A stretch of DNA of 64,000 nt from a phage, in the sequence record PZ452611.1, one strand, 5' to 3'. Positions 14,611-28,595 of the stretch are shown here, one piece after another; within the stretch, counting starts at the first letter, position 1, and every line of letters starts with the position of its first letter. The notes under the pieces were generated by a model. That model worked only from the letters and a program-made list of their open reading frames with translations, had not been told where the DNA came from and did not search any database. Position numbers and translations under genes: made by a program.

Positions 14611-14795
14611 TTCCAGTACTCGATCTACTTTTCATCTCATGGCTTGGATTTTCTGAAAATTTTTCTCGATAAATTTCTCAGTACTCGATCTGTTTTTCGT
14701 TTTCTGAATCGGATTTTCTGGAAATCGTTCCGGAGCTCGACCTGAAATTTTTGGGGACGAAATCGATTTTTCGTTTTCAGAAATGGATTTTTAAA
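14611..14795. repeat. three imperfect tandem ~60-bp repeats in AT-rich non-coding region
   Basis: cagtactcgatct at 14614 and 14679; ggattttctg recurring; third diverged unit to 14795. Confidence 0.5.
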
Positions 14796-15078
14796 ATTTC
14801 TATATGGGAATATTTTATGGGATACTGTTTTATAGGAAATTGTTACGGAGGGTAATTAGCATGCTAACTAAATTTATGAAATGCGAAAAGTTCTCATTTA
14901 GAATTTTGAATGATAATCATTCTCGTTTGCAGAATAACGGGCACCCCCGGTGATTGTCTCCCGGCCCCTACTGCCCCGGCTTGTTATTATAGTAACACAC
15001 AGGACAAAGAAAGCAAGAAGTTTTTGCATAAATTTTTAGACGATAATGATAATCGTTCTCATTTTATGCAGCGCCCAT

Positions 15079-15114
15079 CCCCGGTGGTTGTCTCCCCCGT
15101 CACCGGTGCCTGCC
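15079..15114. repeat. GC-rich ~36-bp element, copy in forward orientation (partial copy 14944-14962)
   Basis: ccccggtggttgtctcccccgtcaccggtgcctgcc; about 33 of 37 positions match reverse complement of 23739-23786. Confidence 0.55.
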
Positions 15115-15318
15115 GTCCTTTCGATAGGTATATTGTGCCACCTGGCGGGGCCGCTGTCAACACTTTTCAAAAAATTTTTCTAACCTGATGCGCTAACCGC
15201 TGCAACCTGGCGGGGCCAGCCTGGCAGGACCTAACTGACCAGGTAGGAGAGAATGAAGGCTTATAATCTGGTGGGCCTGTGCTATAGGATAGGTAACAAT
15301 TGAAGAGGAGGTACAAAA

Positions 15319-15501
15319 ATGAAAGGTAATATGATCCCCCTGGAAAATGTAGCGATTAATGACGCTGAGGCTATCGCCCTGGTTGAAAAGGCTATGGCGG
15401 GAGCGTTGGAACATAAAGAAGAGTACGAAAAATGGTGGTTAACCTGGCGGGGGCGGCGGCTGGAGAATTCTGCCCAAAAAATAATTTTAACTAATGGTTG
15501 A
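15319..15501 (+). CDS. hypothetical protein
   Basis: perfect RBS GAGGAGG; 60 aa. Confidence 0.45.
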   Translation: MKGNMIPLENVAINDAEAIALVEKAMAGALEHKEEYEKWWLTWRGRRLENSAQKIILTNG

Positions 15502-15580
15502 CAGCTCGGACAGTTCTTGTTATTCTTATCCTCGCAAGGTGAACAACACCACACTAATTAACAGAGAGGATAAAAAAATC

Positions 15581-15778
15581 ATGAACGCCTACGGAATCAA
15601 AGTACGTCGCAGCACTCGCCAGGTGGTCACCGATCAAATGGTTTGCCAGGTGGACGTAACCATCAACAACGGGCAAGGCCTTTATAAATTTCGTCGCGGT
15701 CATAGCTATACCCTGCAACAGCTTAATCGTTGCGCCCTGACAAAAGGTCAGATCAACCACTGGTTTAATAAAAAATAA
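15581..15778 (+). CDS. hypothetical protein
   Basis: ATG after AGAGGATAAAAAAATC; promoter-like TTGACA at 15498. Confidence 0.45.
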   Translation: MNAYGIKVRRSTRQVVTDQMVCQVDVTINNGQGLYKFRRGHSYTLQQLNRCALTKGQINHWFNKK

Positions 15779-15782
15779 GTAT

Positions 15783-15811
15783 TGACATATAGTCCGACAC
15801 CAAATACACTA
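15783..15811 (+). promoter_or_regulatory. sigma70-like promoter
   Basis: TTGACA-17-TACACT. Confidence 0.45.
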
Positions 15812-15842
15812 AAAGCACAAAAGACACTAAGAGGATAAAATC

Positions 15843-16241
15843 ATGAAAACCACTACCTTTAATTTTGATAATGCAGACTTTTCTTTTTCTGATGTCAAGA
15901 ACTGCCGCCGTGATCGTGGATTTTACAAGGCTTATAATCTGGTGGGCCTGGACGATGACAATAATTTGCACGAAGTAGCTGAGATCCGGTATTATGCCGC
16001 CGCCAGTGGGAACACTTACTACTGCGTTTTTTGGATACACGACAACAAGAACAATAAGTACGGCTATACTGGCGGCAAGGCAAGCGGTCACGGTTATGAT
16101 AAAGCTAACGCAGCACTTGAGAGCGCATTAAATGCCATGGGGATCACTGCCGACGGCTGGATCTACGAAGAAGAGTTTTTGTCGGCACTTGCTGACCACC
16201 TAGGCTATAAAAAGCACATTGTAACATGCGCCCACGAATAA
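15843..16241 (+). CDS. hypothetical protein
   Basis: promoter 15783-15811; RBS AAGAGGA; contains 24-nt segment duplicated at 15256-15279. Confidence 0.5.
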   Translation: MKTTTFNFDNADFSFSDVKNCRRDRGFYKAYNLVGLDDDNNLHEVAEIRYYAAASGNTYYCVFWIHDNKNNKYGYTGGKASGHGYDKANAALESALNAMGITADGWIYEEEFLSALADHLGYKKHIVTCAHE

Positions 16242-16323
16242 AAATCATTGACACGCTGCAAAATTTAAGTAAACTAGACACAAAAGGCGGGAATGTTTCC
16301 CGCCAGCACAAAGGAAAAAGATC

Positions 16324-16728
16324 ATGAATAAGAACGTACGCCGCATCATGAACGAGTTGGCAAACGATGAAAAAATTATTGACATGCATTTGATCAACAT
16401 TTGCCGCCGTTGTGTAACATATAACAACCGCGCCGCAAAAGCGCGTGAGATGAACGCAAAAGGCACCTTAAAGCCATTCCAGGTGGTGGTAAAGGCCATT
16501 AAAGATGTAACTAATACGGCAAACCAGGTACAGGGGAACACCAACGAGAGTACCAATATTGATCCGGCTTACATCATGAAACGGATCCGGACCTGCAAGA
16601 ACAAAGAGCAAGTGTATAATGTCATAGACTGGTTGGATTCTATGGGCGATGTGGTTTACAATAGGTTTTCTGCAGCTATCGAGATCCAGCTTGACAGGTT
16701 GGACGGTAAAGTACTAAAAACTTACTAA
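16324..16728 (+). CDS. hypothetical protein
   Basis: TTGACA 16248; 5'-UTR hairpin 16286-16304; RBS AAAGGAAAAAG. Confidence 0.5.
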   Translation: MNKNVRRIMNELANDEKIIDMHLINICRRCVTYNNRAAKAREMNAKGTLKPFQVVVKAIKDVTNTANQVQGNTNESTNIDPAYIMKRIRTCKNKEQVYNVIDWLDSMGDVVYNRFSAAIEIQLDRLDGKVLKTY

Positions 16729-16776
16729 GTTTATTTTTAGATGGCCTTGACTCCAGGGCCATCGATAAAGTAAACT
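16729..16776. repeat. ~48-bp intergenic palindromic element, copy 1
   Basis: tttatttttagatggccttgactccagggccatcgataaagtaaac directly after stop codon. Confidence 0.6.
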
Positions 16777-16808
16777 AATCCCAGTTAAGCGAAAAAGGAG
16801 GCTTGAAG

Positions 16809-16927
16809 ATGAGCACTACACGCCAACACACAAAGGTAACGATTATCGTTTGCATCATTGGTTACATCCTGGCGCAAATGTTGATGGGTAGCGCCAATGA
16901 TTTCGCAAAATTTTTCTTAGACTTTTA
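16809..16927 (+). CDS. small hydrophobic (single-TM) peptide
   Basis: 39-aa ORF after AAAAGGAGG; hydrophobic core VTIIVCIIGYILAQMLMG; below track cutoff. Confidence 0.35.
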
Positions 16928-16928
16928 A

Positions 16929-16956
16929 TTGACAAGCTAACTTAAATCAGTATAAT
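16929..16956 (+). promoter_or_regulatory. sigma70 consensus promoter
   Basis: TTGACA-16-TATAAT. Confidence 0.6.
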
Positions 16957-17008
16957 ACTAAGCACATAAACGGGAAAACTTCCCAGAACACCAAAAGGAG
17001 AAAACATT

Positions 17009-17359
17009 ATGAATACTTCCATCACTATGACCGCCGAAGAAAAAGCCCTGCAGATCGCCGCTCTGAAAAAACAGATTGCAGAACTTGAAGACAAGATCGA
17101 CAATTTTGAAATCGACGAAGACAAATACGACGATAAATATGATGAATGGTTGGACGAGATCTACGGCGAAATTATGATCGGAAACATTTCTTTTCTTCCG
17201 TCGCGTATCCTCAAGGAGCTAGATCCTATCGCTTACCGCTGCGGATTTAGCGACTACATCGACAGCCTGGATATTGAGGACGATGAAGAATACCAGGAAT
17301 TACAGACAGAGCTTGAAGAAGTGAAAGAAGAGCTTGCAGAACTGGAAGAAAACGAGTAA
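17009..17359 (+). CDS. acidic coiled-coil protein
   Basis: consensus promoter 16929-16956; RBS AAAAGGAGAAAACATT; very acidic D/E-rich sequence. Confidence 0.5.
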   Translation: MNTSITMTAEEKALQIAALKKQIAELEDKIDNFEIDEDKYDDKYDEWLDEIYGEIMIGNISFLPSRILKELDPIAYRCGFSDYIDSLDIEDDEEYQELQTELEEVKEELAELEENE

Positions 17360-17408
17360 ATTTATTTTTAGATGGCCTTGACTTCAGGGCCATCAATAAA
17401 GTAAACTT
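17359..17408. repeat. intergenic palindromic element, copy 2
   Basis: aatttatttttagatggccttgacttcagggccatcaataaagtaaac after stop codon. Confidence 0.6.
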
Positions 17409-17448
17409 TAGACTGTTAACACTTAACCAATACAGAGGAGTTAAAACC

Positions 17449-17694
17449 ATGGCCGCACTAATTACCAAATATTATGCCCCTACCAACACCAAAAGCGCCC
17501 GTATCATGGTAAAAGGCTTCGGACGTAAAAAGGTGTACACCTGGGATTATTCCCTAGACATGGAAGACAACTACACCAACGCGATGACAGATTTTATTAA
17601 TGAGCTGAACACGCGGATCTTGACAAATTATAAAATTACCGATATTGCCTATATAGGGGAAGGCGGGATCTGTTTTGTCGGTATCGTCAAATAA
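17449..17694 (+). CDS. hypothetical protein
   Basis: RBS AGAGGAG; 81 aa. Confidence 0.45.
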   Translation: MAALITKYYAPTNTKSARIMVKGFGRKKVYTWDYSLDMEDNYTNAMTDFINELNTRILTNYKITDIAYIGEGGICFVGIVK

Positions 17695-17770
17695 ACTGTT
17701 TTTTCGGTGGTCCTGGTAGCAGGGCCATCTATAAAGATAGTTTATCAGCACAATGAAAGGAGAAAGTAAC

Positions 17771-18124
17771 ATGATCAGCGGGGCAAGTTTTATTATTGGC
17801 GCTATTGCTACGGCTTTAATTGTAAACAAGATCCAATCCAAAAACGAAAAAGAGAGCAACGCGCTTACAGAATACCCATTTTGGGTATTCAACGACAATG
17901 AAGACTACATTATCAAGTACAAGGATGAGAAAGGGGACCAGGTAACACCGAGACCGATCCCAGCTTACAAGATGCAAGAAACATTATACCGCTTAAAGGC
18001 TGGCGGCGCAAAAATCGTAGACTTTTGGGGATATGATTGCAAGGATCAGGAGACTATAAAACGTCGTATCCGGGCGATTCAGGCAAATATTGAGATCAGT
18101 AAAGGGGGCGTTTATGAAAATTAA
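17771..18124 (+). CDS. membrane-anchored hypothetical protein
   Basis: ATG 17771 after AAAGGAGAAAG; N-terminal TM helix. Confidence 0.45.
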   Translation: MISGASFIIGAIATALIVNKIQSKNEKESNALTEYPFWVFNDNEDYIIKYKDEKGDQVTPRPIPAYKMQETLYRLKAGGAKIVDFWGYDCKDQETIKRRIRAIQANIEISKGGVYEN

Positions 18125-18311
18125 TTTCGAAAAAATTGTAAAGCGCCCCCACGATTCCGAAGAGCTGCCGGAACGCCGCCAGCGTAACAATAAACTGAAT
18201 AAACCGAAAAGGTTCGGGAAGATCTGGAGAAATCACTATGATCGCAAATTACCGGGCCTGCTTTTGGAACGTGAACGACAGGCGGAACGATACCGCCACA
18301 AAGACAAATAG
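18114..18311 (+). CDS. small basic protein
   Basis: ATG after AAAGGGGG; Arg/Lys-rich; followed by terminator. Confidence 0.35.
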   Translation: MKINFEKIVKRPHDSEELPERRQRNNKLNKPKRFGKIWRNHYDRKLPGLLLERERQAERYRHKDK

Positions 18312-18319
18312 CAACCAAC

Positions 18320-18348
18320 GCCCCGCCATTGTGCGGGGCTTTTTATTT
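18320..18348 (+). terminator. rho-independent terminator
   Basis: GCCCCGC-cattgt-GCGGGGC followed by TTTTTATTT. Confidence 0.6.
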
Positions 18349-18492
18349 CTATCCCGCCGATAGCGCCCCTGGTTGGCCCTACAAGCGCCATAAAGGCCCC
18401 TACCTATGCAATCCCCTTTCTTAACCTGAAAACAGCGTCTAGGGCCGTTTTATGGCGTTAAAAATATTATTGACAGTAATTCTATTTAAAGC

Positions 18493-18521
18493 TTGACACC
18501 TTGGGATAGTCCGGATATACT
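18493..18521 (+). promoter_or_regulatory. sigma70-like promoter (second TTGACA at 18470)
   Basis: TTGACA-17-TATACT. Confidence 0.5.
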
Positions 18522-18556
18522 AACCACATCAAAGCAAGAAGGAAGGAGTAAACGCC

Positions 18557-18817
18557 ATGCGTAAATTAAAAAATTTTGATAAAGTAGATGTTGTCCTGAA
18601 TAATTTTTACTACTGCAATAATAAAGCCGTTTGGTGGCGTGATAGTTCCACCGATAAAGTTAAAGCGCGCTTTCTCCAAGGGCACTGGCAAGGCCGCCCA
18701 GTGATTAAAATCTCGGGGCAATTGGTAGCGTTTAAAAATTGCCGCCGTGTTGATGACGTTGAAGAGATTCTAAACATTTTACGCCACAATAATTTAAAAA
18801 ATAGTGTTGACAAGTAA
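18557..18817 (+). CDS. hypothetical protein
   Basis: promoter 18493-18521; RBS AAGGAAGGAG. Confidence 0.5.
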   Translation: MRKLKNFDKVDVVLNNFYYCNNKAVWWRDSSTDKVKARFLQGHWQGRPVIKISGQLVAFKNCRRVDDVEEILNILRHNNLKNSVDK

Positions 18818-18834
18818 GTCTCAATAAGTATACT
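18807..18834 (+). promoter_or_regulatory. sigma70-like promoter
   Basis: TTGACA-16-TATACT. Confidence 0.5.
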
Positions 18835-18891
18835 TAAACACACAGGCGGGAAAACTTCCCGCCACTAACAAAGAAAATAGGAGAAAATATC

Positions 18892-19515
18892 ATGACCACC
18901 GTTAACATTACCACAGGTTACAATTTAGCTTTCGACGTGCTGACCGACGAACAAAAAGAAAAAGCCGTTGAAATGGTCCGAGAAAGAGAAGAACACAGCG
19001 GGGATAACTTTTTTGCAGAAAGTGTAATTGAAGACTATAAAGAATATGTCTTTCCAGAGTATGGCCTTGAAGATACCAAGGTACATTGGTCCGGCTTTTG
19101 GTGCCAGGGTGACGGCGCGTCAATCAGTGCGGAAAACGTGGATTTAGAAAAATTCTTGCGTAAAGTAAAGGCCCTGACCAAGTTCCGATCAATTCGTCAC
19201 TTGTTCGGCACAATGCACGATGGCGAGCTATCCGCAAGTGTTGAGCGTGATCCATATAGCCGCTATAGTCACGAAAACACTGTAAGCGGGTACATCGATA
19301 CTACATGGCTAGACCTGACCGCCAAACAAGAAAATAAAGTGGAAGATCTGGAAGAGCTGATCACCGAGACGGTACGGGAGCTATCCCGCAAGGTTTACGT
19401 AGACCTGGAGGAGGCCTATCTAGAACAGTTCACTACCGAAAACCTGATCGGCCTTATTGAGGCCAATGATTGGCGGTTTGATGTGGATGAATATGGAGAG
19501 ATGAGTTTTTCATAA
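18892..19515 (+). CDS. hypothetical protein
   Basis: promoter 18807-18834; 5'-UTR hairpin; RBS; 207 aa acidic. Confidence 0.5.
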   Translation: MTTVNITTGYNLAFDVLTDEQKEKAVEMVREREEHSGDNFFAESVIEDYKEYVFPEYGLEDTKVHWSGFWCQGDGASISAENVDLEKFLRKVKALTKFRSIRHLFGTMHDGELSASVERDPYSRYSHENTVSGYIDTTWLDLTAKQENKVEDLEELITETVRELSRKVYVDLEEAYLEQFTTENLIGLIEANDWRFDVDEYGEMSFS

Positions 19516-19523
19516 ATAAAGTG

Positions 19524-19552
19524 TTGCAATAATCTAAAAACCTGCTATATTA
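19524..19552 (+). promoter_or_regulatory. sigma70-like promoter
   Basis: TTGCAA-16-TATATT. Confidence 0.45.
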
Positions 19553-19604
19553 AAACTCAAGGGGCAAGACGTTTGCCCCCACACAAAACAAAGAGGAAAA
19601 CATC

Positions 19605-19985
19605 ATGAAAAACACTACCAAAGCTATTTACACCGTTATGTTTAACCTGGTTACCTTTCGCGAGGATATGAAAGATCTTCCGCGTGAAACAGTGTGCGAC
19701 CATATCGAAAACTATCGCAAACTAATCAAAGAGTTGCCTTTAAAACGTGATCAGTATGCGGCTAACGCCATGCTTAATGCCATGATCAAAAAGATGATCC
19801 AGTGTGATTTAATTCTAGCCTATGATTATGCGGGTGGTCGTTTTGCAGTATACAATCAGCCCGTGCCCGGTATGGGCACCATCGAAGAATTGCACGCGCT
19901 CAATCTAAAACAAGATGTGTGGGATAGTATGCCCCGCGTGGTGGTGTGGGCAGAAAGCGGGAAGATTTACGGCGATAGTTTTTAA
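19605..19985 (+). CDS. hypothetical protein
   Basis: promoter 19524-19552; hairpin; RBS AAAGAGGAAAACATC. Confidence 0.5.
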   Translation: MKNTTKAIYTVMFNLVTFREDMKDLPRETVCDHIENYRKLIKELPLKRDQYAANAMLNAMIKKMIQCDLILAYDYAGGRFAVYNQPVPGMGTIEELHALNLKQDVWDSMPRVVVWAESGKIYGDSF

Positions 19986-20049
19986 TCAGGTAACAGGCGG
20001 CATATTTGCCGCCTTATTGTTAAACAAAACTGCAAAAGAGGTACATAGA

Positions 20050-20421
20050 ATGGAATTTATTATTTTGGCTGTATTGGTTGCCTTGTTTAACGCCTGGATC
20101 GCTGGCAAGATGGGCAGATCCGCCTTTTTATGGTTTATTATATCTATTTTCCTGGGGGTGGTTGCAACTATTGTATTGGTTATCCTTGCAATTGTTGACA
20201 AGGGGAATAATAGAAAGGGTAAAGTATTTTCAGACCTGTACGACGCTCAAACGTTTGTCAACGCCTATTATAGTGATCTTCCAGTCTCCCTACGCTGCAG
20301 CTTGGCACAACAGGTTTTTGATGAGGCTAAAACCAGAGATCAAGCCCATGAGATATGTTTAACTGAGGCGGATCGCCTATTTGAGAGGAATAGAAAATAT
20401 GTGGGCCAACCGTTTAAATAA
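20050..20421 (+). CDS. hypothetical membrane protein (2 predicted TM helices)
   Basis: ATG after AAAAGAGG; hydrophobic segments. Confidence 0.45.
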   Translation: MEFIILAVLVALFNAWIAGKMGRSAFLWFIISIFLGVVATIVLVILAIVDKGNNRKGKVFSDLYDAQTFVNAYYSDLPVSLRCSLAQQVFDEAKTRDQAHEICLTEADRLFERNRKYVGQPFK

Positions 20422-20531
20422 TGCCACGTTAATTAATCCCTTTAGTGAAGATTTGAAGCCAGCCGCCTGGCGTGACGGATTCAATAACGAACGCTTTATT
20501 TTCAGGCCTGATCTTGAGGAATTTTATAACA

Positions 20532-20657
20532 ATGGATCGAACAACAGCGGAGATAATTTTTCTTGTGGTGTGTGTCGTGATAGGACTCCTGGGGGCCATT
20601 GTAGATCGCGTCACTACTACCAGAAGGAAAGGGGGAGACGATGACAACCAAGGATAA
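20532..20657 (+). CDS. small single-TM peptide
   Basis: 41-aa ORF; competing overlapping frame from 20399 exists. Confidence 0.25.
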   Translation: MDRTTAEIIFLVVCVVIGLLGAIVDRVTTTRRKGGDDDNQG

Positions 20658-20760
20658 GCCATGCACCGATAAGGTGCGCCGCGTTATGGTATGGCTTGAG
20701 ATTATCGCCCTTGAAATATTGCTAGGCGTAGGGATGTACTTTATCGCTGTAAGTAACTAA
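20641..20760 (+). CDS. small single-TM peptide
   Basis: 39-aa ORF after AAAGGGGGAGACG; followed by terminator. Confidence 0.3.
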   Translation: MTTKDKPCTDKVRRVMVWLEIIALEILLGVGMYFIAVSN

Positions 20761-20764
20761 GAAC

Positions 20765-20792
20765 GGCCCCCGATCATGGGGGCCTATCTTTT
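20765..20792. terminator. rho-independent terminator (possibly bidirectional)
   Basis: GGCCCCC-gatcat-GGGGGCC then TATCTTTT; A-run follows. Confidence 0.55.
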
Positions 20793-20816
20793 AAAAAAAA
20801 ATTTTCTTCCGGGGTG

Positions 20817-20845
20817 TTGCAATCCGGTCCGGAATGTGGATAATA
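20817..20845 (+). promoter_or_regulatory. sigma70-like promoter
   Basis: TTGCAA-17-ATAATA. Confidence 0.4.
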
Positions 20846-20900
20846 ACAATCAACGGGGAGCTAATCCCCACCACCACAAAAACCAGAAAGGAGAAACAAA

Positions 20901-21101
20901 ATGAGCAACAATATCCGCGTTATTAACTTCAAAAAAGAAGAAAAAATTGCCGTGCTGATTGACGGTCAAGAAATCTTCAAGGGCGACTATGAAGATCATC
21001 AAACGGCGATTAGTATCACTCGCGTGATTGGTTACCATAATTTCTACCCCCAAGGCGCTGAGGCAGCAGTTAAACGAATCAAAGAGATTGTAGGCCTGTA
21101 A
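20901..21101 (+). CDS. hypothetical protein
   Basis: promoter-like 20817-20845; hairpin; RBS AAAGGAG. Confidence 0.5.
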   Translation: MSNNIRVINFKKEEKIAVLIDGQEIFKGDYEDHQTAISITRVIGYHNFYPQGAEAAVKRIKEIVGL

Positions 21102-21150
21102 AATTTATTTTTAGATGGCCTTGACTTCAGGGCCATCAATAAAGTAAATT
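21100..21150. repeat. intergenic palindromic element, copy 3
   Basis: identical core to copy 2; after stop codon. Confidence 0.6.
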
Positions 21151-21192
21151 TAAACCCTGTTAAAATAATCAGTGCAAAAAGGAGTAATGATC

Positions 21193-21492
21193 ATGTTTAT
21201 ACCCGCCAATAATCTTTATTTCTTTGATGGTCAGATCGTAGACGGTGTGGAAGTGGAGATCACTGGGTGCCCTGGTGGTCAGGCTATGACTTTTCGGAAT
21301 AATGCCTTTGATGATTCTCGTATCGTTATGAGAATGGAAGTTACAAAGCTGGACGACAAGAAAACGCTCATTGACTATTCCGTGAAAGATCATCCAGACT
21401 ACCACATGATCTATGGTGATTTGTGTATTGTTGACCGTGACAAGGTGGGCGGCATTGTGATCGCTATTGTGAACGATGTTTTCTCTGAATAA
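21193..21492 (+). CDS. hypothetical protein
   Basis: ATG 8 nt after AAAAGGAG. Confidence 0.45.
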   Translation: MFIPANNLYFFDGQIVDGVEVEITGCPGGQAMTFRNNAFDDSRIVMRMEVTKLDDKKTLIDYSVKDHPDYHMIYGDLCIVDRDKVGGIVIAIVNDVFSE

Positions 21493-21631
21493 TTCCGGCA
21501 AATGATGCAAAATAAGGCCCCTAGCAGGGCCTGCAGCGATATAATCACATAAAGGCTATGCGGTTGCATGGCCTTTATTATTTTAGCGTTACAGCGTCCC
21601 CAAGGCGCTTAAAAAATTTTTAAAGAAGTAC

Positions 21632-21660
21632 TTGCATCAAGTCCTACAATATGGATAATA
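21632..21660 (+). promoter_or_regulatory. sigma70-like promoter
   Basis: TTGCAT-17-ATAATA. Confidence 0.4.
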
Positions 21661-21716
21661 GGACGTGTCAGGGGGGCGGCCCCCAATCATTAACCGGATA
21701 GATAGGAGTTAAAATC

Positions 21717-22001
21717 ATGGCTATTGTCACCGTTGGCGATGTAGTGGAAATGGAAGCAAAATACTTAAAAGCGGGTATGCATATCCTACGGAATGATCAA
21801 GAATTGTTATTAACGATGGTAGACTATAATCCCGGCCAGGATTATCCAAGCATCGACATACTTTTTGAGTATGTTGATGAAGAATTGAAAGAGGATGAGG
21901 CTTATCAGGGTGAATTCTGCAATTTCTTTTGCCCTGATGAGGTTGTAAAAGTTATCTATCAACCTGGCGTACCTTTCCCGCTGCACGCTATCAATAAATA
22001 A
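21717..22001 (+). CDS. hypothetical protein
   Basis: promoter 21632-21660; hairpin GGGGGCGGCCCCC; RBS ATAGGAG. Confidence 0.5.
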   Translation: MAIVTVGDVVEMEAKYLKAGMHILRNDQELLLTMVDYNPGQDYPSIDILFEYVDEELKEDEAYQGEFCNFFCPDEVVKVIYQPGVPFPLHAINK

Positions 22002-22055
22002 ACCTGGCGGGGCCGAAAAGGCCCCAATTATGAAAATAAAGAGAGGTAAATCATC

Positions 22056-22289
22056 ATGATGGAACAAATTAAACGCGCTGAGGCTATTAATGGCAATGTG
22101 ATCTATTTTGTCAGCAAAAACGAAAAAGGCGTACCATATGCGGCGGTAATAGTACAACCTGACGGCGATTATTGGTTTACTGTATACGGATCTTATTCTT
22201 TCGGGCGTCCGGTTCATGATAGAATTTTGAAAGTAGCGAATCCGACCGGGAAAAATATCACAGCAGAAAAATTTTTTGAAAATAGTTGA
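22056..22289 (+). CDS. hypothetical protein
   Basis: hairpin; RBS AAAGAGAGG. Confidence 0.45.
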   Translation: MMEQIKRAEAINGNVIYFVSKNEKGVPYAAVIVQPDGDYWFTVYGSYSFGRPVHDRILKVANPTGKNITAEKFFENS

Positions 22290-22314
22290 CATGACCATAT
22301 AAGACTGTAATATA
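22286..22314 (+). promoter_or_regulatory. sigma70-like promoter
   Basis: TTGACA-16-TAATAT. Confidence 0.5.
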
Positions 22315-22365
22315 TAAATCAAAGGGGGGCAACAAGCCCCACCAACCACAAAGAGGATAAAAATC

Positions 22366-22545
22366 ATGGCTATTATTGCAAAGACTGAGATCGTAGGCTT
22401 AGATTCTATTCTCCTCGCATATGAGGAAGCTATAGAAATGTATGTGGTTTCCTATGGTGAATATATCCGTGAATATAAATCTATTGATCTGGCTTTTGAA
22501 TGTTATATTCGCCAGGTTAATAAAGCGTACGATGATTATCGTTAA
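22366..22545 (+). CDS. hypothetical protein
   Basis: promoter 22286-22314; hairpin; RBS AAAGAGGA; 59 aa. Confidence 0.4.
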   Translation: MAIIAKTEIVGLDSILLAYEEAIEMYVVSYGEYIREYKSIDLAFECYIRQVNKAYDDYR

Positions 22546-22635
22546 AATAGCTTGACAACAAACAACCATCTAACAAAGCATAATACATAAGGCGGTGGAA
22601 TGGTCCGCCACCTGGAACAAGAAGAGGAAAACAAG

Positions 22636-22740
22636 ATGAAACAGAAATTAATTGATGCGGTGATCCTGGTTATTGCCCTGGGTATTGGCCTGATTGCAAC
22701 CATGTCTAATATGATCTTGTCTTCCAACGGTATCGGGTGA
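22636..22740 (+). CDS. small single-TM peptide
   Basis: 34-aa ORF after hairpin and AAGAAGAGGAAAACAAG. Confidence 0.3.
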   Translation: MKQKLIDAVILVIALGIGLIATMSNMILSSNGIG

Positions 22741-22749
22741 GGTTGGCAA

Positions 22750-22965
22750 ATGATCACTAACAAAACAGGCAAAACAGAATTTTTACGCAACTTACAGATC
22801 GGCAAGCCTGAGATCTGGTATTGCACTAAAACACCACGTGACGAAATGAAAGACTTCACCGCCACGCTGCAACGGGTAAAGATATCCATCACGCAGAAAA
22901 AGGCCTTATTAGTGGTGGAAGGTGAGATCCCCCAAACCGTTGTTATAGTTGAGCGTACAGCATAG
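22750..22965 (+). CDS. hypothetical protein
   Basis: ATG after GAGG; 71 aa. Confidence 0.4.
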   Translation: MITNKTGKTEFLRNLQIGKPEIWYCTKTPRDEMKDFTATLQRVKISITQKKALLVVEGEIPQTVVIVERTA

Positions 22966-23056
22966 TTTAATTTATACCGATACCCGAAAATTAACCAACA
23001 AAGCATAAACAGGCGGTTACCGCCGCCTTAAACGTAGCAGAAAGAGGATAGACACA

Positions 23057-23341
23057 ATGAAAAAGATGATCGCAGTGGTTGCCCTGGTTGTTGGACTTAA
23101 TGCGCCTGTAATGGCTAAAGAGCTGGCAAAAGAGGTTAATCTAACGGATATTCATGCCGTCAATCAAATCGGGGTTACTTATCGCTTATGCCTTGCCGCT
23201 AAAACTTTTAATGACGGTACAACAGAGTACTACGGATTCGAGGGTATCCGGTGCGGTGAGCTTGCTCGCGACCTTAAGGAAGATTCAGACCTGGAGGATC
23301 TGCCCATAACCGTGAACGGGAAAACTTACGTGAACCGTTAA
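23057..23341 (+). CDS. secreted/periplasmic small protein
   Basis: Sec-type signal peptide MKKMIAVVALVVGLNAPVMA; RBS AAAGAGGA. Confidence 0.5.
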   Translation: MKKMIAVVALVVGLNAPVMAKELAKEVNLTDIHAVNQIGVTYRLCLAAKTFNDGTTEYYGFEGIRCGELARDLKEDSDLEDLPITVNGKTYVNR

Positions 23342-23343
23342 CC

Positions 23344-23478
23344 ATGAAAAAGATAATCATCACCTTGGGGATTGTGGTGGCAATATTGGCGCTCTTCCCC
23401 CTTATGGTTAGGTATGTGCTGATCAGTGTTATTCTAGTGGTCAGCGATCTGGTGTTATATATTAACTCATTGTTTTAG
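23344..23478 (+). CDS. small membrane protein
   Basis: 44-aa hydrophobic ORF right after upstream stop. Confidence 0.3.
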   Translation: MKKIIITLGIVVAILALFPLMVRYVLISVILVVSDLVLYINSLF

Positions 23479-23486
23479 GTGCGATA

Positions 23487-23678
23487 ATGACCACTGATGA
23501 AGCTGTAAAAGTGTTGGCGGTATTGAGATATCATAATCAAACAAAGGTTATAAACGATCCTGATTATGTTGACTCAAAGCGTGAAGATGAGACATTGACC
23601 GCAATATGGATTATTCAAGAATTGCTAAAGCGCATGACAGAGAAAAACCGACCGGACTACATAGGCGAAAAAATATAA
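23487..23678 (+). CDS. hypothetical protein
   Basis: 63 aa; followed by terminator-like hairpin. Confidence 0.4.
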   Translation: MTTDEAVKVLAVLRYHNQTKVINDPDYVDSKREDETLTAIWIIQELLKRMTEKNRPDYIGEKI

Positions 23679-23738
23679 TATTTATAAACTACAAAACAGG
23701 GCTTGCAATGGTCCTGTTTTTTGTTATACTTATTCCAC

Positions 23739-23786
23739 GGCAGGCACCTGGCGACGGGGGGAGACAATCACCGGGGGGTGCCTGTC
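23739..23786. repeat. GC-rich element, inverted copy with internal 8-bp stem
   Basis: ggcaggcacctggcgacggggggagacaatcaccggggggtgcctgtc. Confidence 0.55.
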
Positions 23787-23807
23787 ATATAAGAACTATA
23801 AAAACCG

Positions 23808-23836
23808 TTGACATCTGCCAGGGGGTGGGGTAACAT
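23808..23836 (+). promoter_or_regulatory. sigma70-like promoter
   Basis: TTGACA-17-TAACAT. Confidence 0.45.
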
Positions 23837-23890
23837 TTATCTTGAAGGGGCAAAAGTGCCCACACAACAACCAGAAGAGAGGAAAACATT

Positions 23891-24163
23891 ATGTCAAGCT
23901 GGATTAATCAAGAAGTCGAATCACGTTTTAATGCTATTTGGGATCTCATCGAAAAAGAGGACGGAACATCAAGCCCTTACCTCAATAATCTTGAATTCCA
24001 TTTTGTGGAAGCGATGAACGCAGAACATGATCACGAAGGTGGTGCGGACGAGTTCGCTAAAAGGTATGGCTTCAACAATGCCAACGAAATGATCGAGGCG
24101 GTTGTACTCCAGGCTGAGGAAGATTATCAATTAAAAACGCTTGAATTCTGCCGCCGCAAGTAA
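23891..24163 (+). CDS. hypothetical protein
   Basis: promoter 23808-23836; hairpin; RBS GAGAGGAAAACATT. Confidence 0.5.
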   Translation: MSSWINQEVESRFNAIWDLIEKEDGTSSPYLNNLEFHFVEAMNAEHDHEGGADEFAKRYGFNNANEMIEAVVLQAEEDYQLKTLEFCRRK

Positions 24164-24223
24164 TAAGATAATGACACGGGCCAAAAGGCCCACTAATCAG
24201 AACCACACAAAGAGAGAAAGAAA

Positions 24224-24442
24224 ATGACAACCCGTAAAATTAAAGTTGTTTGCATTGAATCTACTGGGGGCGCTTTTGTAGTTGGTCAGGAATATAATGC
24301 GGTTTTAATGGGTACGGATTGGAAGGTTAAAGGCCTTAATGGTTACGAGTACGGCACTACTTGCGGCTTGCGTGGTCGAATCGGATACGTGAGTTTAGAC
24401 AATAAAGAAAAATTTGTTTTCGACACCCTTGTGAGTAAATAG
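24224..24442 (+). CDS. hypothetical protein
   Basis: hairpin GGGCCAAAAGGCCC; RBS. Confidence 0.45.
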   Translation: MTTRKIKVVCIESTGGAFVVGQEYNAVLMGTDWKVKGLNGYEYGTTCGLRGRIGYVSLDNKEKFVFDTLVSK

Positions 24443-24519
24443 CATGAATTGCTAAAGACTGATCTGCGAACTGCTGTATTATCAACTAATCAAAACGAAC
24501 CACATAAAGAGGAAACATC

Positions 24520-24783
24520 ATGAAACGTCTGGATCAGCTTAAATTAGTTCAGTACATGGCCTACAGAATTCTTGAAGTCCAAAAAGGTAGCAAAAAAGAG
24601 GTTTGCGAGAAAGCTTATAAGATCTTTACCCGCAAAAAAGATGACTGGATGCTACGCCAGACCAAAAAGGCTGACATCTTGGGGTACCTGGAAGAAGAGA
24701 TCCGACTTGAAGAGCAAGAAGAGATCCGCCGCAGTGAGGCAGATTATCAGGCAGCTTGGGAAAACTGGATGAGTAACAAATAA
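24520..24783 (+). CDS. hypothetical protein
   Basis: RBS AAAGAGGAAACATC. Confidence 0.45.
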   Translation: MKRLDQLKLVQYMAYRILEVQKGSKKEVCEKAYKIFTRKKDDWMLRQTKKADILGYLEEEIRLEEQEEIRRSEADYQAAWENWMSNK

Positions 24784-24851
24784 TACAACAAGTTGCACGA
24801 TCAGGGGGGCAATAAAGCCCCTTGATCACATAAAAATTATGCTATCCTTGG

Positions 24852-24880
24852 TTGACAAGGATCGGCAGTTTTGCTATATT
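24852..24880 (+). promoter_or_regulatory. sigma70-like promoter
   Basis: TTGACA-17-TATATT. Confidence 0.55.
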
Positions 24881-24929
24881 CTTTTTTGAAGGGAAGTTGT
24901 AAGAAAATTAACTAAGAGGTAAAAACACC

Positions 24930-25349
24930 ATGAACATTAAATCTAATAATCCGGCATATAGCTTTGATAACGCTTTTTGTCACGGTCCGGCGGCGAAAGG
25001 ATTCGAAATCGATGGTAAACTAATTATTGTCAATGTTGACGGGGAAGAGGTTGCAGTATATCCGGTGGCAGACGTTAAAAGCCGTTTGCAATGCCGCATG
25101 GATGTTACCGCCTACCAGCTTGATCCGGTCCGCATAGTTGCCCTGGTCCTGGAGGAAGAGATCAAAGCCATGCATCATAGCAATAAGTTTATCGGTGACG
25201 CGCAAGATAATATGAAGGTATGCCGCTATAAAGTTAATGAAGTGCTTAAAGAATACGGCTTCAAAGATCTGATGATCAAGCGTGATGAAAAATTCCGTTA
25301 TCGTAACGACCTGGCAAATCGAATCTATGAAATATACGAATCATTATAA
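24930..25349 (+). CDS. hypothetical protein
   Basis: promoter 24852-24880; RBS AAGAGG; last plus-strand gene, followed by terminator. Confidence 0.5.
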   Translation: MNIKSNNPAYSFDNAFCHGPAAKGFEIDGKLIIVNVDGEEVAVYPVADVKSRLQCRMDVTAYQLDPVRIVALVLEEEIKAMHHSNKFIGDAQDNMKVCRYKVNEVLKEYGFKDLMIKRDEKFRYRNDLANRIYEIYESL

Positions 25350-25367
25350 TTTCTTAACTAAACTATC

Positions 25368-25395
25368 AGGGGCTTTAAAAGGCCCCTTTCTTTTG
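25368..25395 (+). terminator. rho-independent terminator ending plus-strand arm
   Basis: AGGGGC-tttaaaag-GCCCCT then TTCTTTTG. Confidence 0.55.
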
Positions 25396-26347
25396 TCTGT
25401 ATTTCTCCTACCACAAACGGCCCAGCCTGGCAAGTGGAATAATTGACTAGCCAGCAATTACCAACACTGTACAAATATACATATAAAATAACTATTGCAT
25501 AATCTTTCATCTTGTGGTAGCAGGGCCATTTTTACACGTTTTCCTTCCAAAATTGCACGTAATGCAGCTATTGCATAAAATTTAACCTGATGCACATCTT
25601 CAATAGCTTGTCAACAACTAAAAATCTTTATAAGTCATACACTTACATAACCACAAAAGCGTGTTCTACGTGAAAAATCGAGTATAACTATAGCCGCCAG
25701 ATCTCAGAATTTACGTACGCTCACCATTCTATAGTCTGCTAAGTATTTATTCCAACCATAGAATAACAGAATAGTCAATACCTGCATAAAATAATTATTC
25801 GTGTAAACTGCATAACATAAATCAGCCGGGGTGTCAACATTTTTCGTAAACGGCTCGAAATTATCACTGTGAGCTATCATAAACAGAGAAATCTTTAGTC
25901 GTCTAATGTTTACTGTACGTTACTATACTAACTGGAATCATTAGATGACTAATAAAAAGATAAGAAATCATTAACAATGCAATTGTTTTATTCATAACAA
26001 TAAGGCAACTATGCAAACGAATGGCATGGCGCGACGGAGTCGCGACATAATATAAAAGCAGTAACCATCACCCCCGTGATAGTTTGTCTGCAAACTATTA
26101 ATCAGATCATAGTTGCCTTGTATTTAGTTAATCATGACATAAACTCAGGCATAGCCTTCGTCTCGAGGATGTTAACAAGCAAGGCAACTATAGATCTTCT
26201 AATAGTTGCCCTGCTTTTATATTATGTCATAGAAACACCCGAAGGGGTGACCAAAGGTCACCTGGCATAGCCAGTGAAATATTGTAAACAAGTTAATTAT
26301 TATCATGCAAACGAATGGCATGGCTTATCATCTCTGTGTAAATAGTT

Positions 26348-26511
26348 TGTTTGTAAACAGTTTATACGTGAACAGTTAGCTGTGTAAACTATCAGGCATG
26401 TAAGCTATTGAGCATGTAAACAGTAAAGGTCGTGAACAGTAAGCGAGCGAATAGTAATGGCGTGAACAATGACAGCGTAAACAGTCAGGCATGTCAATTA
26501 TGTTCAGTGTG
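26348..26511. repeat. tandem array of 11 units, 15-16 bp period, consensus n6-GTRAACAGT (iteron-like)
   Basis: 9-mers start at 26348, 26363, 26378, 26394, 26410, 26426, 26442, 26457, 26472, 26487, 26503. Confidence 0.7.
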
Positions 26512-27953
26512 TCACCATTATGTCATATTGTGTCAGACAAGTTTTTCTCCTCTTTGTCAAGTGCTGCATGAAAAATTTACAATCTGGTATGGTAGCATTT
26601 TTGCGGCCCTGTTTACATTCAGTACTGTATGTATAAGCCTTGTTGTGTGGGCGCTTAGACGTCTAGACGGTTGGAAGTCTGCAGGTCAATATCTAATCTA
26701 TTGGTTGCTAACTATATCCCACACAAATAGTAAGAAATGCAATTGTTATATGCGTAAACTGTAACTCATGTTATCAATCCCTGTATGGATCGCCAGTGGT
26801 GCGCATAATAGGTATTATGTTAAATTGCCAGTAATGATAACTATTCTCACAGTGATAGGTATTCTCATTCAACCCCACAAGATAGGTTGCAAATGTTGTG
26901 CCACTGTGTGAACGGCCTCGCCTATTAATTTGCCTCACTGCCTCGATATTTGAGAATTATTATAAGAATGAGAAGTATTCCCATTTCGTCCGCCTGGCAG
27001 CACTCCTGTAGGTCAGGTCAAAATCGGGAGAGAACTGGACCTGTTCAGATATTTCTGGCTGGCTCTTCAGGTCTGTGTGGGAAAAGCCGACCCCTCCGGC
27101 GGCGGGGAGGGGGTCAATTAAAAAATTTACGGGGCATATGAAGCGCTCTTCAGGTAAGGCATGTATTATGGGATGAAACCCTCTTCAGGAAATGATATTT
27201 GTGGGTGTGATATTTGCTGGAAAGCTAGATATGACTGGACTCCTGGCGGGGCAGGGGTAGTACAGACAGGGGAAATATGGGGGATGTAGTTGGGTAAATT
27301 GATCAGGCAGGTAGAGTATGGAATATGTTACGAGTATGTTAAATATGGAGGGTGAATATCTGCAGGATTTGTGTGTAAAATCAAAGACTTAAGTGGTGTT
27401 GTGGTATTTTCTATAAATAATTCAAGTTTAATAGGTGATATTTGTCCCTATCCACTTTGTGTGGTAAACAGATTCAGATGAGATTGGTTTACGAGTGTAT
27501 ACATAATATACAAATTAAAGATACAAGAAACCCCCCTCCCCCTTCGGCTACCATTCACCTTTTCCTCTGACTGGTACTTAAACACTTATTCAGACTCTTC
27601 AGGTTATCACCCATATATCATATGGCAGTGACTGGTGTCCTCCGGCCCCTCTTTCGTCACCCGTCCGCTTCGCCATGCTAATGCCATAGCCAATGGTTCG
27701 GTTGTTCACCCTGTTCACTCAGGTGTATCTCCATACCCCTTCAAACCGAAGAGAACAGAAAACCCGAATTACTCGGTAAAAGAAAAGAGAAGAACTTAAT
27801 TTTATCAGGATAAGCAAGAATGTCAAGGCATGACTGCTCACTAAACAAGCAAACAGTCATGTGTGGGAGGTAAGTGATTGTGGTGGTAGGAAATTTAGTT
27901 GAAAGATGTGTTATAGGTGCTCCCAGCACTTTAGCCGGGTAGCTAATTGTGTG

Positions 27954-28169
27954 TCAGTCCAGCGGTTCATCCTCTACTTCACTGAAATCAATGTTCATGG
28001 TCTCTTCCCAACCATCGATCTCAGCACAAGAGTGAAGTTCTTTAGGGTTTACTCCCAAAGCCTCAGCAACAGAGTCTATATTTAACACCTCTGGCAGGTA
28101 TGATTCATCGAATTCAAGGTAAATCAGGCCACGAGTGTTGTCAGCCCCACCAAATATTTCTATCTTCAT
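27954..28169 (-). CDS. hypothetical protein
   Basis: ATG (MKIEIFGG) 5 nt after GAGGAG; track ORF trimmed. Confidence 0.4.
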   Translation of the reverse strand: MKIEIFGGADNTRGLIYLEFDESYLPEVLNIDSVAEALGVNPKELHSCAEIDGWEETMNIDFSEVEDEPLD

Positions 28170-28289
28170 GAAATCTCCTCTGGAAATGAGAGTGTGAACA
28201 GGGTTTATACGTTCCAATGCACTGGAATTATGCACGTTTGCCTCTTCAGGCCATGCTTTAGCATGAGGAACCTGTGTGGGCTCGGTGCT

Positions 28290-28595
28290 TCATAGTCTAC
28301 CACCCCTGAACTCTTCGTGCTCAGGCATAATAGAGAACCAGATATCTACGATGTCCTCCCACGTCAGGTCATCAGCCTCAGGATCTATCTGGAGCGAAGA
28401 TGGAGAATCTTCAGAATCGAAGTTTTCCTCTTTCGCTGGCTCAGCCAAGGGACATATAGTCACTCCTTTGGATGTCTCTTCAGATGCATGTGTGTTTATC
28501 ATGTTCCACCCGTGAGTATTCCTGCAACAGCTGCTATGGACGTAATGATCATCAGGATCACCACCAAAACTTCGGACAATGTTTTCATTGTGCAC
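28290..28595 (-). CDS. hypothetical protein
   Basis: ORF only; start uncertain. Confidence 0.35.
   Translation of the reverse strand: MHNENIVRSFGGDPDDHYVHSSCCRNTHGWNMINTHASEETSKGVTICPLAEPAKEENFDSEDSPSSLQIDPEADDLTWEDIVDIWFSIMPEHEEFRGGRL

Follow-up and report, generated by a model that had tools for sequence, protein, structure and literature searches.

A 13-nt GC-rich element, ACCTGGCGGGGCC, has been kept essentially unchanged, and on one strand, at three places in the ORFan-rich early region of Vequintavirus phages. We favor, tentatively and with clearly less than even confidence, reading it as a sequence-specific cis-regulatory element, probably recognized on DNA, that lies in promoter/stem-loop cassettes. 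The decamer at its core, CCTGGCGGGG, recurs far above chance.

Distribution of the Repeat

The window, i.e., the whole stretch of 64,000 nucleotides analyzed, is the reverse complement of the genome sequence of rV5, an E. coli phage of the genus Vequintavirus. Five exact copies of the decamer occur in it, each on the + strand, and three of them share the identical 13-mer:

Site 1, 15140..15152, + strand: 13-mer ACCTGGCGGGGCC, decamer at 15141-15150; exact in 9 of 11 relatives
Site 2, 15205..15217, + strand: 13-mer ACCTGGCGGGGCC, decamer at 15206-15215; exact in 10 of 11 relatives
Site 3, 15443..15452, + strand: decamer within ORF197 (codons T-W-R-G); private to rV5
Site 4, 22002..22014, + strand: 13-mer ACCTGGCGGGGCC, decamer from 22003; exact decamer in 8 of 8 relatives
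Site 5, 27242..27251, + strand: decamer in a 2.6-kb non-coding box between convergent transcription units; private to rV5

The sequence-only reading had claimed five copies where fewer than one is expected, and this was borne out. About 0.08 copies are expected in the window, none of 100 dinucleotide-preserving shuffles gave five (the maximum was one), and the k-mer statistics that had been proposed as a check place the decamer as the commonest 10-mer of the window, though its G+C content is 90% against 43% for the window. Two of the positions given at that time (15141 and 22003) were right, and the other three (15207, 15447 and 27243) were off by 1 to 4 bases. The AT-rich intergenic context ascribed to the copies applies to four of them and fails for the one at 15443, whose location inside a gene had already been mentioned.

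A one-mismatch search of the window added a single site, on the - strand, and the complete rV5 genome (137,947 bp) contains no further exact copy and four one-mismatch sites, a number close to the chance level for near-matches. All exact copies lie on one strand, inside 12 kb of the 138-kb genome. That a GC-rich word recurred by coincidence is extremely improbable. Two of the five copies are indeed lineage-specific, and the near-matches they arose from are no commoner than chance predicts, but the shuffles, the 10-mer ranking and the retention of three copies throughout the genus effectively refute this explanation, and the threefold presence of a 13-mer and the confinement to one strand of a short segment also speak against it.

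Two Classes of Copy

The comparison covered a small sample of 12 genomes, with per-site counts from 8 to 11 relatives, and one of the records (Alma) is error-prone. The copies split into two classes, as sites 1, 2 and 4 are essentially invariant genus-wide and sites 3 and 5 are private to rV5. At site 3 the relatives have one mismatch to the decamer, CCTGGCAGGG, the exact word occurring otherwise only in the Alma record; at site 5 nine of the 11 relatives, the closest ones included, carry CCCGGCGGGG, and C9 and Alma have other inexact variants. Private transitions in rV5 made both sites exact (A>G at 15449 and C>T at 27244), the second standing among four private changes grouped at 27226-27272. 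Taking 1.07% as the rate of private substitution, the neutral probability of both exact gains is about 3.5e-4, a post hoc estimate that is only suggestive of non-neutral gains. Gene conversion was rejected as the origin of these copies, because only single bases were altered and the flanks were not. Judging from the relatives, sites 3 and 5 are recent one-base gains outside the conserved system. The earlier proposal of a regulator site or conserved leader fits sites 1, 2 and 4, where the 13-mer is fixed and its neighbors vary, and not sites 3 and 5.

The 13-mer is invariant across about 10% sequence divergence while its flanks drift, and the unpaired ACCT prefix is kept at sites 1, 2 and 4. 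As would be expected of an operator, sites 2 and 4 are conserved above the neighboring non-coding bases among the 12 genomes. Of the two arms of a hairpin at site 4, the 5′ one, within the motif, is fixed and the 3′ one is variable, which points to a constraint on the sequence itself, beyond base pairing. However, most of the surroundings of site 1 hardly vary in any case, so that the conservation of this site is not motif-specific, which argues against the recognition reading. The two relatives without an exact site 1 are A147, which has CCTGGTGGGG, and Alma.

The Region Upstream of ORF197 and Its Predicted Antisense Promoter

Sites 1 and 2 are located in a long, very conserved non-coding region upstream of ORF197, and the conserved leader suggested by the sequence-only reading survives to this extent, as a regulatory region. 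Site 1 falls within ORF198, an annotated but questionable gene, and 104 nt separate site 2 from the start codon of ORF197. A predicted promoter lies on the opposite strand:

Sigma70-type promoter, 15132..15160, - strand: TTGACA, 17-bp spacer GCGGCCCCGCCAGGTGG, and CACAAT with a TG before it
UP-element-like A/T-rich tract, 15162..15181, - strand: between sites 1 and 2, with a length that varies among relatives

This promoter has 10 of 12 consensus positions and an extended -10, is conserved in relatives (D1 has CAAAAT, still 10 of 12), and is presumably active. The complement of site 1 sits in its 17-bp spacer, and site 2 lies beyond the UP element, 46-55 bp upstream of the -35 box, which puts it near -81 to -90 relative to the predicted start. 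Together the two sites bracket the -35 box and the UP element. This promoter, the only strong one linked to the motif, would fire against the sense leader that had been pictured. We infer that a phage or host protein would bind the 13-mer as an operator-like site on DNA, rather than on RNA, and would modulate the antisense promoter and the surrounding early transcription.

Some features of the two sites are at odds with an operator. They are repeated in the same orientation, where inverted copies would be expected of a divergent promoter pair, and their spacing in relatives ranges from 65 to 69 bp, without helical phase being kept. In rV5 they match at 16 of 17 bases, 65 bp apart; local duplication, named beforehand as the explanation that would undo the claim, can account for this pair and cannot account for site 4. 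Between the two sites, on the left flank of site 2, up to 9 of 24 bases differ (slur16), a 48-bp indel occurs among relatives on its right side, and in Alma a 14-bp deletion between CCTGGC repeats adjoins it.

Similar promoters elsewhere lend some support to the operator reading. In Pectobacterium phage POP15 the promoter is TTGACG-17-CATAAT and CCAGG again occupies spacer positions 10-14, and in similar non-coding regions of other genera the spacers of the minus-strand promoters are GC-rich and contain CCWGG, in different sequences. Several other promoter assignments were rejected. A second minus-strand promoter by site 2 (TTGCAG-17-TAGAAA, with TAGAAT in some relatives) was too weak for the scan; of the 29 occurrences of GCCAGG, just 2 fall in the spacer of a strong promoter (site 1, and P168 at 23811-23839), which does not make it a general spacer element; inspection gave inconsistent distances from the motif to downstream -10-like hexamers, contrary to a role as -35 box substitute; and, by inspection, none of the listed CCTGGC-containing sites has GC ten bases past GG, as a sigma54 promoter (TGGCAC-N5-TTGCW, GG-N10-GC) would. 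Scan and inspection found no strong sigma70-like promoter with an upstream A/T-rich tract at sites 2-5, and a scan of 14400-15700 (sites 1-3) found no intrinsic terminator at the decamer copies.

Site 4 and Its Hairpin

Site 4 starts right after the ORF176 stop codon (21999-22001) and ends 42 nt before the ORF175 start (22056). It provides the foot and the 5′ arm of a conserved hairpin between the two genes:

Hairpin GGGGCC-GAAAA-GGCCCC, 22009..22025, + strand: conserved, its 5′ arm made up of the four G that end the decamer, followed by CC

In relatives the 5′ arm and the loop are invariant. FV3 has a loop of 6 nt and an A>G change at the base preceding the decamer. The 3′ arm occurs as GGCCCCC, GGCCCCCC, GGCCTCCGCC (D1) or GGCCCCTCC (FV3), the stem in D1 and FV3 would lengthen across GGCGGGGCC, and variable insertions follow the hairpin. 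The hairpin is GC-rich and at a gene end, like rho-independent terminators, but unlike them it has no U-tract on the + strand, where AAUUAUGAAAA follows, as judged from the letters alone; on the - strand UUUAUUUAUU begins only past an intervening GCCAGG. Scan and inspection revealed no recognizable promoter at site 4 on either strand. Sites 1 and 2 overlap or adjoin a promoter core and site 4 is away from any, which counts against an operator role there.

Three copies had also been described as lying just upstream of 5′-UTR hairpins or RBSs, but the copies share no common 5′-UTR hairpin and keep no fixed distance to an RBS.

RNA Function or Cassette Ancestry

All five copies are on the strand transcribed by the early genes, which fits a role in RNA equally well and counts against a reading confined to DNA. 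The element might act in the sense-strand transcripts, namely in the ORF197 leader (sites 1 and 2) and between ORF176 and ORF175 (site 4), either as a hairpin arm whose unpaired flank helps to determine the processing, stability or attenuation of the mRNA, or as the target of an RNA-binding protein or of a C-rich RNA segment complementary to it; we consider this somewhat unlikely. Support comes from site 4, which follows a stop codon, precedes the next RBS and contributes the 5′ arm of the conserved hairpin, from about a dozen similar intergenic GC hairpins in the early region, and from the predicted fold of the + strand leader, in which site 1 pairs with the C-rich segment 15072-15084. In addition, both site-1 substitutions of A147 are C>U and would preserve a small hairpin (UGGCGG/CUGUCA) via G-U pairs. 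However, folding both strands around each of the five copies gave no common structure, and a shared RNA structure was rejected on this basis; the fold z-scores at sites 1, 2, 3 and 5 are unremarkable, the CCTGGC prefix is absent from the other intergenic hairpins, the 3′ arm at site 4 is less conserved than the 5′ arm, and the substitutions are too few for a covariation test. No Rfam family matched the element: with Rfam 15 the only match in the window at the gathering score was a group I intron (4902-5137), and 14400-15600 gave matches at chance level only.

The copies might also lack a dedicated recognition. They would then be fragments of GC-rich stem-loop/promoter cassettes that duplication and recombination had scattered through a hyperplastic early region, in the manner of PeSLs (see below), and would persist through their location in otherwise constrained elements (a promoter spacer, an attenuator hairpin), with the extra rV5 copies due to chance. 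This, too, has a rather low probability in our judgment. It agrees with the near identity of sites 1 and 2, which stand beside other ~65-bp repeats, with another promoter/stem-loop cassette of 51 nt present in four copies in the genome, with the indels that adjoin sites 2 and 4 in relatives (including the Alma deletion), with the RB49 homologues of several early ORFs, RB49 and phi1 being phages with documented PeSLs, and with the chance rate of one-mismatch copies. Against it, the shared stretch is 13 nt only and not ~50-100 bp, no promoter half accompanies site 4 and no convincing stem-loop accompanies sites 1 and 2, the unpaired prefix is conserved at three sites, the motif is invariant where its flanks drift, and the two independent gains in rV5 would be unlikely if neutral.

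Comparison with Known Systems

The element recognized on DNA that we favor would be set in cassettes of the same general kind as the promoter-early stem-loops (PeSLs) of T4-type phages (Arbiol et al. 2010, PMC2839356; Comeau et al. 2014, PMC4122927). For RB49 and phi1, PeSLs with polyG-loop-polyC stems have been documented in or near sigma70 promoters (PMC2839356, PMC4122927). The rV5 sites partly resemble them, in the short GC-rich dyads of polyG/polyC type in or next to a strong sigma70-like promoter with an A/T-rich upstream tract, in the AT-rich setting dense in small ORFans, some with RB49 homologues, in the intergenic stem-loops without a U-tract, and in the indels beside the elements in close relatives (the 48-bp indel and 14-bp deletion by site 2, and the insertions past the site-4 hairpin). 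Unlike PeSLs, rV5 has three conserved copies, compared with about 50, sharing 13 nt; its one clear promoter, that at site 1, is on the minus strand, antisense to the flanking genes; and site 4 is a stem-loop without a promoter, whereas sites 1 and 2 have the promoter context without a convincing stem-loop, the site-1 spacer containing only a 4-2-4 dyad (GCGG-GG-CCGC) and site 2 CTGGC-GGG-GCCAG. Many 50-100-bp copies ahead of ORFans were not found, and site 4 is the one conserved copy that has an RBS and start codon right after it.

Bacterial and phage repressors and activators can pair an operator over the promoter core with an upstream auxiliary site. The rV5 arrangement is similar in having one copy in the -35/-10 spacer and an identical one upstream, at about -85, with variable flanks, and differs in the direct orientation, the spacing without phase, and a third copy off any promoter. 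The boxB of the lambda nut site is a hairpin with a GAAAA pentaloop. Site 4 is like it in its short GC stem, conserved GAAAA loop and intercistronic position in an early operon, but no boxA-like sequence and no N-like protein were identified in rV5, sites 1 and 2 are without such a hairpin, and the FV3 loop is longer.

Every copy contains the Dcm site CCWGG, as CCTGG, a trivial fact without bearing on function; the window shows no avoidance of CCWGG, with 120 sites versus ~78 expected from a rough base-composition estimate. For the eight neighboring ORFs, Pfam gave no match and no functional clue, and PHROG only families of unknown function. A scan of IMG/VR with AACCTGGCGGGGCC returned 120 matches, mostly unrelated singles, of which only two were Vequintavirus contigs, and a second scan with a conserved 25-mer returned one contig. 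Literature searches found only unrelated papers for the decamer, no Vequintavirinae transcriptome study and nothing on Fur boxes in lytic phages. The rV5 genome paper describes only sigma70-like promoters and a T4-late-like motif, leaves large non-coding regions unexplained and does not mention the motif (PMC3606486).

Wider Control Regions and Significance

The non-coding regions around the copies contain Fur-box-like operators and repeated promoter-plus-hairpin modules, and these may matter more than the decamer. A broader reading, which we regard as improbable, joins them with the element. The 13-mer and the other GC-rich spacers with CCWGG would mark a special class of antisense promoters of the early region, located in a regulatory hub. 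This hub brings together Fur-box-like operator arrays, repeated modules of a promoter plus a hairpin, which are candidate small RNAs, and phased A/T repeats; it is conserved throughout Vequintavirinae and is present in Stephanstirmvirinae as well. If true, a strictly lytic myovirus would use Fur to tie its early program, or the initiation of replication, to host iron status, with the 13-mer serving a phage-specific second factor or a Dcm-methylation-sensitive switch between incoming and newly replicated DNA.

The rV5-like phages are widely used in typing and biocontrol of E. coli O157, and to our knowledge essentially nothing is known about the regulation of their transcription. The analysis highlights two candidate control regions, one intergenic (14.56-15.32 kb) and the other the non-coding box at 25.35-27.96 kb. 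A conserved, strand-specific element at an antisense promoter would be a concrete, mutable handle on early regulation in these phages, and so would the Fur-like operator array.

The decamer and its genome

Read as its reverse complement, Escherichia phage rV5 (DQ832317.1, Vequintavirus) matches window positions 14500-22500 at 99.9% identity; subtracting an rV5 record position from 131,970 gives the approximate window coordinate. The region with the decamer belongs to the early transcription unit "genes 238-164", of which it forms the distal portion, and consists of small plus-strand ORFs of unknown function. It ends at a 2.6-kb stretch (25350-27957) between convergent units, termed "non-coding" in the rV5 genome paper (PMC3606486) and called the non-coding box here.

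The decamer CCTGGCGGGG occurs exactly five times in the window, always on the plus strand, at 15141, 15206, 15443, 22003 and 27242 (sites 1-5). The sequence-only reading had counted five copies and expected fewer than one by chance; both statements were borne out, as shuffled sequence contained one copy at most and a mean of 0.08, while three of its five coordinates were wrong by 1-4 bases. Chance is excluded as the source of the recurrence, and the decamer is the most frequent of all 10-mers in the window, even though its G+C content is 90% against 43% for the sequence. Allowing one mismatch added a single minus-strand site in the window; the whole rV5 genome holds the same five exact copies only, and its four one-mismatch sites are as many as chance would give.

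The hexamer CCTGGC is biased by strand (20 plus-strand versus 9 minus-strand copies) and by region, with 15 of the 20 plus-strand copies within the 14.6 kb of 14316-28958, where a rough base-composition estimate gives fewer than two. It is possible that a looser motif exists, with the decamer as its strongest form.

Anatomy of the sites

Site 1 occupies the spacer of a predicted minus-strand promoter:

15160-15132, minus strand: promoter TTGACA (15160-15155), 17-bp spacer GCGGCCCCGCCAGGTGG, TG-CACAAT (to 15132), 10/12 consensus
15162-15181, minus strand: A/T-rich UP-like tract of this promoter

The promoter is retained in relatives, and the D1 variant CAAAAT also scores 10/12. Beyond the UP tract comes site 2. 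It is separated from site 1 by 65-69 bp, a spacing that follows the length of the A/T homopolymer run at 15169-15180; this run varies in length and composition (AAAAAATTTTT versus up to A13), and with it changes the final base of a weak -10-like hexamer on the minus strand (TAGAAA versus TAGAAT). Site 4 starts directly 3' of the ORF176 stop codon, about 44 nt upstream of the ORF175 start, and supplies the 5' arm of the hairpin GGGGCC-GAAAA-GGCCCC. Between genes of the early region there are roughly twelve further perfect GC hairpins, mostly lacking U-tracts, and the CCTGGC prefix is absent from all of them. No fold common to the five decamer copies was found.

Conservation of the copies

Twelve relatives were compared (slur16, navn, Mangalyan, Alma, FV3, D1, A142, A12a, A147, C9, O157 typing phage 4/WalterGehring and two IMG/VR contigs), Alma being discounted for a record with many split genes and homopolymer errors. 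Sites 1, 2 and 4 share the 13-mer ACCTGGCGGGGCC, which is exact in 9/11, 10/11 and 8/8 relatives, respectively, the exceptions being A147 (one transition, site 1) and Alma. Site 3, inside ORF197, reads CCTGGCAGGG in other relatives, with other single-base variants in IMG54 and A12a, and outside rV5 is exact in Alma only. Site 5, in the non-coding box, is CCCGGCGGGG in 9/11 relatives, the closest ones among them, with other inexact variants in C9 and Alma.

Sites 3 and 5 owe their exactness in rV5 to private transitions (A>G at 15449, C>T at 27244). Private substitutions of rV5 amount to 1.07% over 14-28.4 kb, 71% being transitions, which gives a post hoc probability of about 3.5e-4 for two such conversions among four near-matches needing a transition. 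This is only suggestive of selection for extra exact copies in rV5, since the figure is post hoc and site 5 falls among four private changes clustered at 27226-27272.

The whole region around site 1 (14860-15200) is nearly invariant among relatives, indicating that the region matters and being uninformative on the motif itself. To the left of site 2, up to 9 of 24 bases have changed (slur16, A147, IMG54) while the 13-mer has not, and a 48-bp indel lies to its right. Site 4 keeps its decamer, 5' arm and GAAAA loop unchanged throughout, whereas the 3' arm and the sequence downstream vary (GGCCCCC, GGCCCCCC, GGCCTCCGCC, GGCCCCTCC, and also insertions). Where it can be judged, at sites 2 and 4, conservation is motif-specific, and the asymmetry of the arms suggests that the sequence as such is recognized, because a plain hairpin should hold both arms equally.

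The name "Campylobacter phage" is misleading for about 20 GenBank records (MG0656xx, UNVERIFIED). Classified as Vequintavirus and with 90-95% identity to rV5, they evidently represent E. coli phages.

The regulatory hub

The intergenic region 14562-15318 is a conserved regulatory hub, and some of its elements recur elsewhere in the window:

14606-14791: tandem array of three ~65-74-bp repeats, which end in phased A/T tracts (AAAATTTTTC)
14911-14925: Fur-box-like palindrome, 7-1-7 core at 14911
15042-15060: Fur-box-like palindrome, 17/19 positions of the E. coli Fur consensus, 7-1-7 core at 15047
26835-26849, 26853-26867, 26951-26965, 26969-26983: Fur-box-like palindromes of 7-1-7 pattern in the non-coding box
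14945-14962 and 15079-15096 (minus strand), 23759-23776 (plus strand): core GGGAGACAAYCACCGGGG, three copies for 0.09 expected

4MG and Seu621 have equivalent triple repeats (GGGTTCTCGATCG...AAAAAATTTTTC) in the corresponding position. Conservation of a 60-90-nt part of the hub (14877-14964) extends to Seunavirus, Mydovirus, Certrevirus and further Vequintavirinae (80-88%) and to Phapecoctavirus of the Stephanstirmvirinae (about 70%).

Six of the nine window matches to the Fur-like palindrome (TGAKAAT-N-ATTMTCA) are within the two large non-coding regions. Palindromes also occur in loci of relatives (L130 577-649, L131 1155-1256, L133 and L134 803-846, L135 815-858), and arrays with exactly 29-bp spacing are present in POP15, Mt1B1_P17, 4MG, Seu621 and KE22, spanning Certrevirus, Seunavirus, Mydovirus and Phapecoctavirus; the 4MG array includes the perfect Fur core TGATAATCATTATCA. 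These patterns suggest host Fur, or a Fur-like phage repressor, as a controller in strictly lytic phages; a literature search found nothing on Fur boxes in lytic phages.

Each GGGAGACAAYCACCGGGG copy sits in a hairpin loop, just 3' of a sigma70-like promoter-like site. Because the copies are on opposite strands, plus-strand segments 14944-14962 and 15079-15098 are perfect 19-20-nt complements of plus-strand 23757-23777. Homologous elements were found in inny, POP15, 4MG, Seu621 and Mt1B1_P17 (locus L132 ~205-245, L130 ~660-690); judged from sequence alone, inny (Justusliebigvirus, phi92-like, Stephanstirmvirinae) has the same hairpin element upstream of its ORF175 homologue. No Rfam family matches these hairpins, which are candidate small RNAs or antisense pairs.

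Minus-strand sigma70-like promoters recur in the non-coding region of those relatives, with GC-rich spacers that contain CCWGG and differ in sequence:

POP15, minus strand: TTGACG-CCCGGCGGGCCAGGGTC-CATAAT, CCAGG placed within the spacer exactly as in rV5
Seu621, minus strand: TTGCAA-ACGGCCCCGGCCTGGGT-TATATT

The site-1 context, an antisense promoter with a GC-rich CCWGG spacer, is therefore an old feature of the group, the exact 13-mer being its Vequintavirus version.

Site 1, both hairpin modules and the Fur-like boxes overlap the annotated ORF198 (92 aa, 14910-15188). Most annotations of relatives leave this stretch non-coding, as it also is in other genera, and the variable A/T run falls inside its 3' end; ORF198 is probably not a gene.

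Other repeats

The non-coding box is dense with repeats: GTRAACWRT eight times at 26353-26762, TGATATTTG three times, and CTCTTCAGG five times at 27063-28250 (eight in the whole window, all plus strand, versus 0.55 expected). It also has four Fur-like palindromes and a strong hairpin (27091-27112), and several relatives' GenBank assemblies start or end nearby; such a make-up would suit an origin, a packaging region or a control region. Immediately after site 5, four plus-strand G4-5 tracts (27245-27285, GGGGCAGGGGTAGTACAGACAGGGGAAATATGGGGG) could form a G-quadruplex.

A further family was found in the early region:

16727-16777, 17358-17408, 17693-17743, 21101-21151: 51-nt repeat, 69-98% identity

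It forms a hairpin, GATGGCC-TTGACTTCA-GGGCCATC, with a -35 box in the loop, followed by a -10-like TAAACT, and as a promoter/stem-loop cassette resembles the promoter-early stem-loops (PeSLs) of the T4-type phages RB49/phi1. PeSLs combine a sigma70 promoter with a polyG-loop-polyC stem-loop in ORFan-rich hyperplastic regions and are associated with indels (PMC2839356, PMC4122927).

At 4902-5137 (plus strand), Rfam matched a group I intron (64.7 bits, E=4e-14). This stretch is ORF227, next to the DNA polymerase gene ORF228, and no intron is annotated in the rV5 record; the polymerase region of relatives is interrupted by HNH endonuclease genes.

What the 13-mer may be

Ranked first, tentatively and short of even confidence, is an operator-like DNA site recognized by a putative factor, favored by conservation at the sequence level, by copies placed within a promoter core and upstream of it, and by what may be selection for additional copies in rV5. 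Site 4, the direct repeat orientation and the non-phased spacing are left unexplained by it. The strand bias and the intercistronic place of site 4 would fit an RNA element of sense-strand early transcripts, which we regard as rather unlikely; the copies have neither shared structure nor covariation.

Just as doubtful is that the copies are remnants of recombining, PeSL-like promoter/stem-loop cassettes. The indels near the copies, the identity of sites 1 and 2 at 16 of 17 bases and the presence of the 51-nt family in the same region agree with such an origin, but the shared stretch is just 13 nt long and no single site has the defining promoter and stem-loop pair.

A literature search found no paper mentioning the decamer motif. 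The decamer element, whether operator or not, is conserved and uncharacterised; cis-elements of its kind are familiar, and the phage is well known. More surprising are its neighbors, the arrays of Fur-like operators and the recurring promoter-hairpin modules common to two phage subfamilies.
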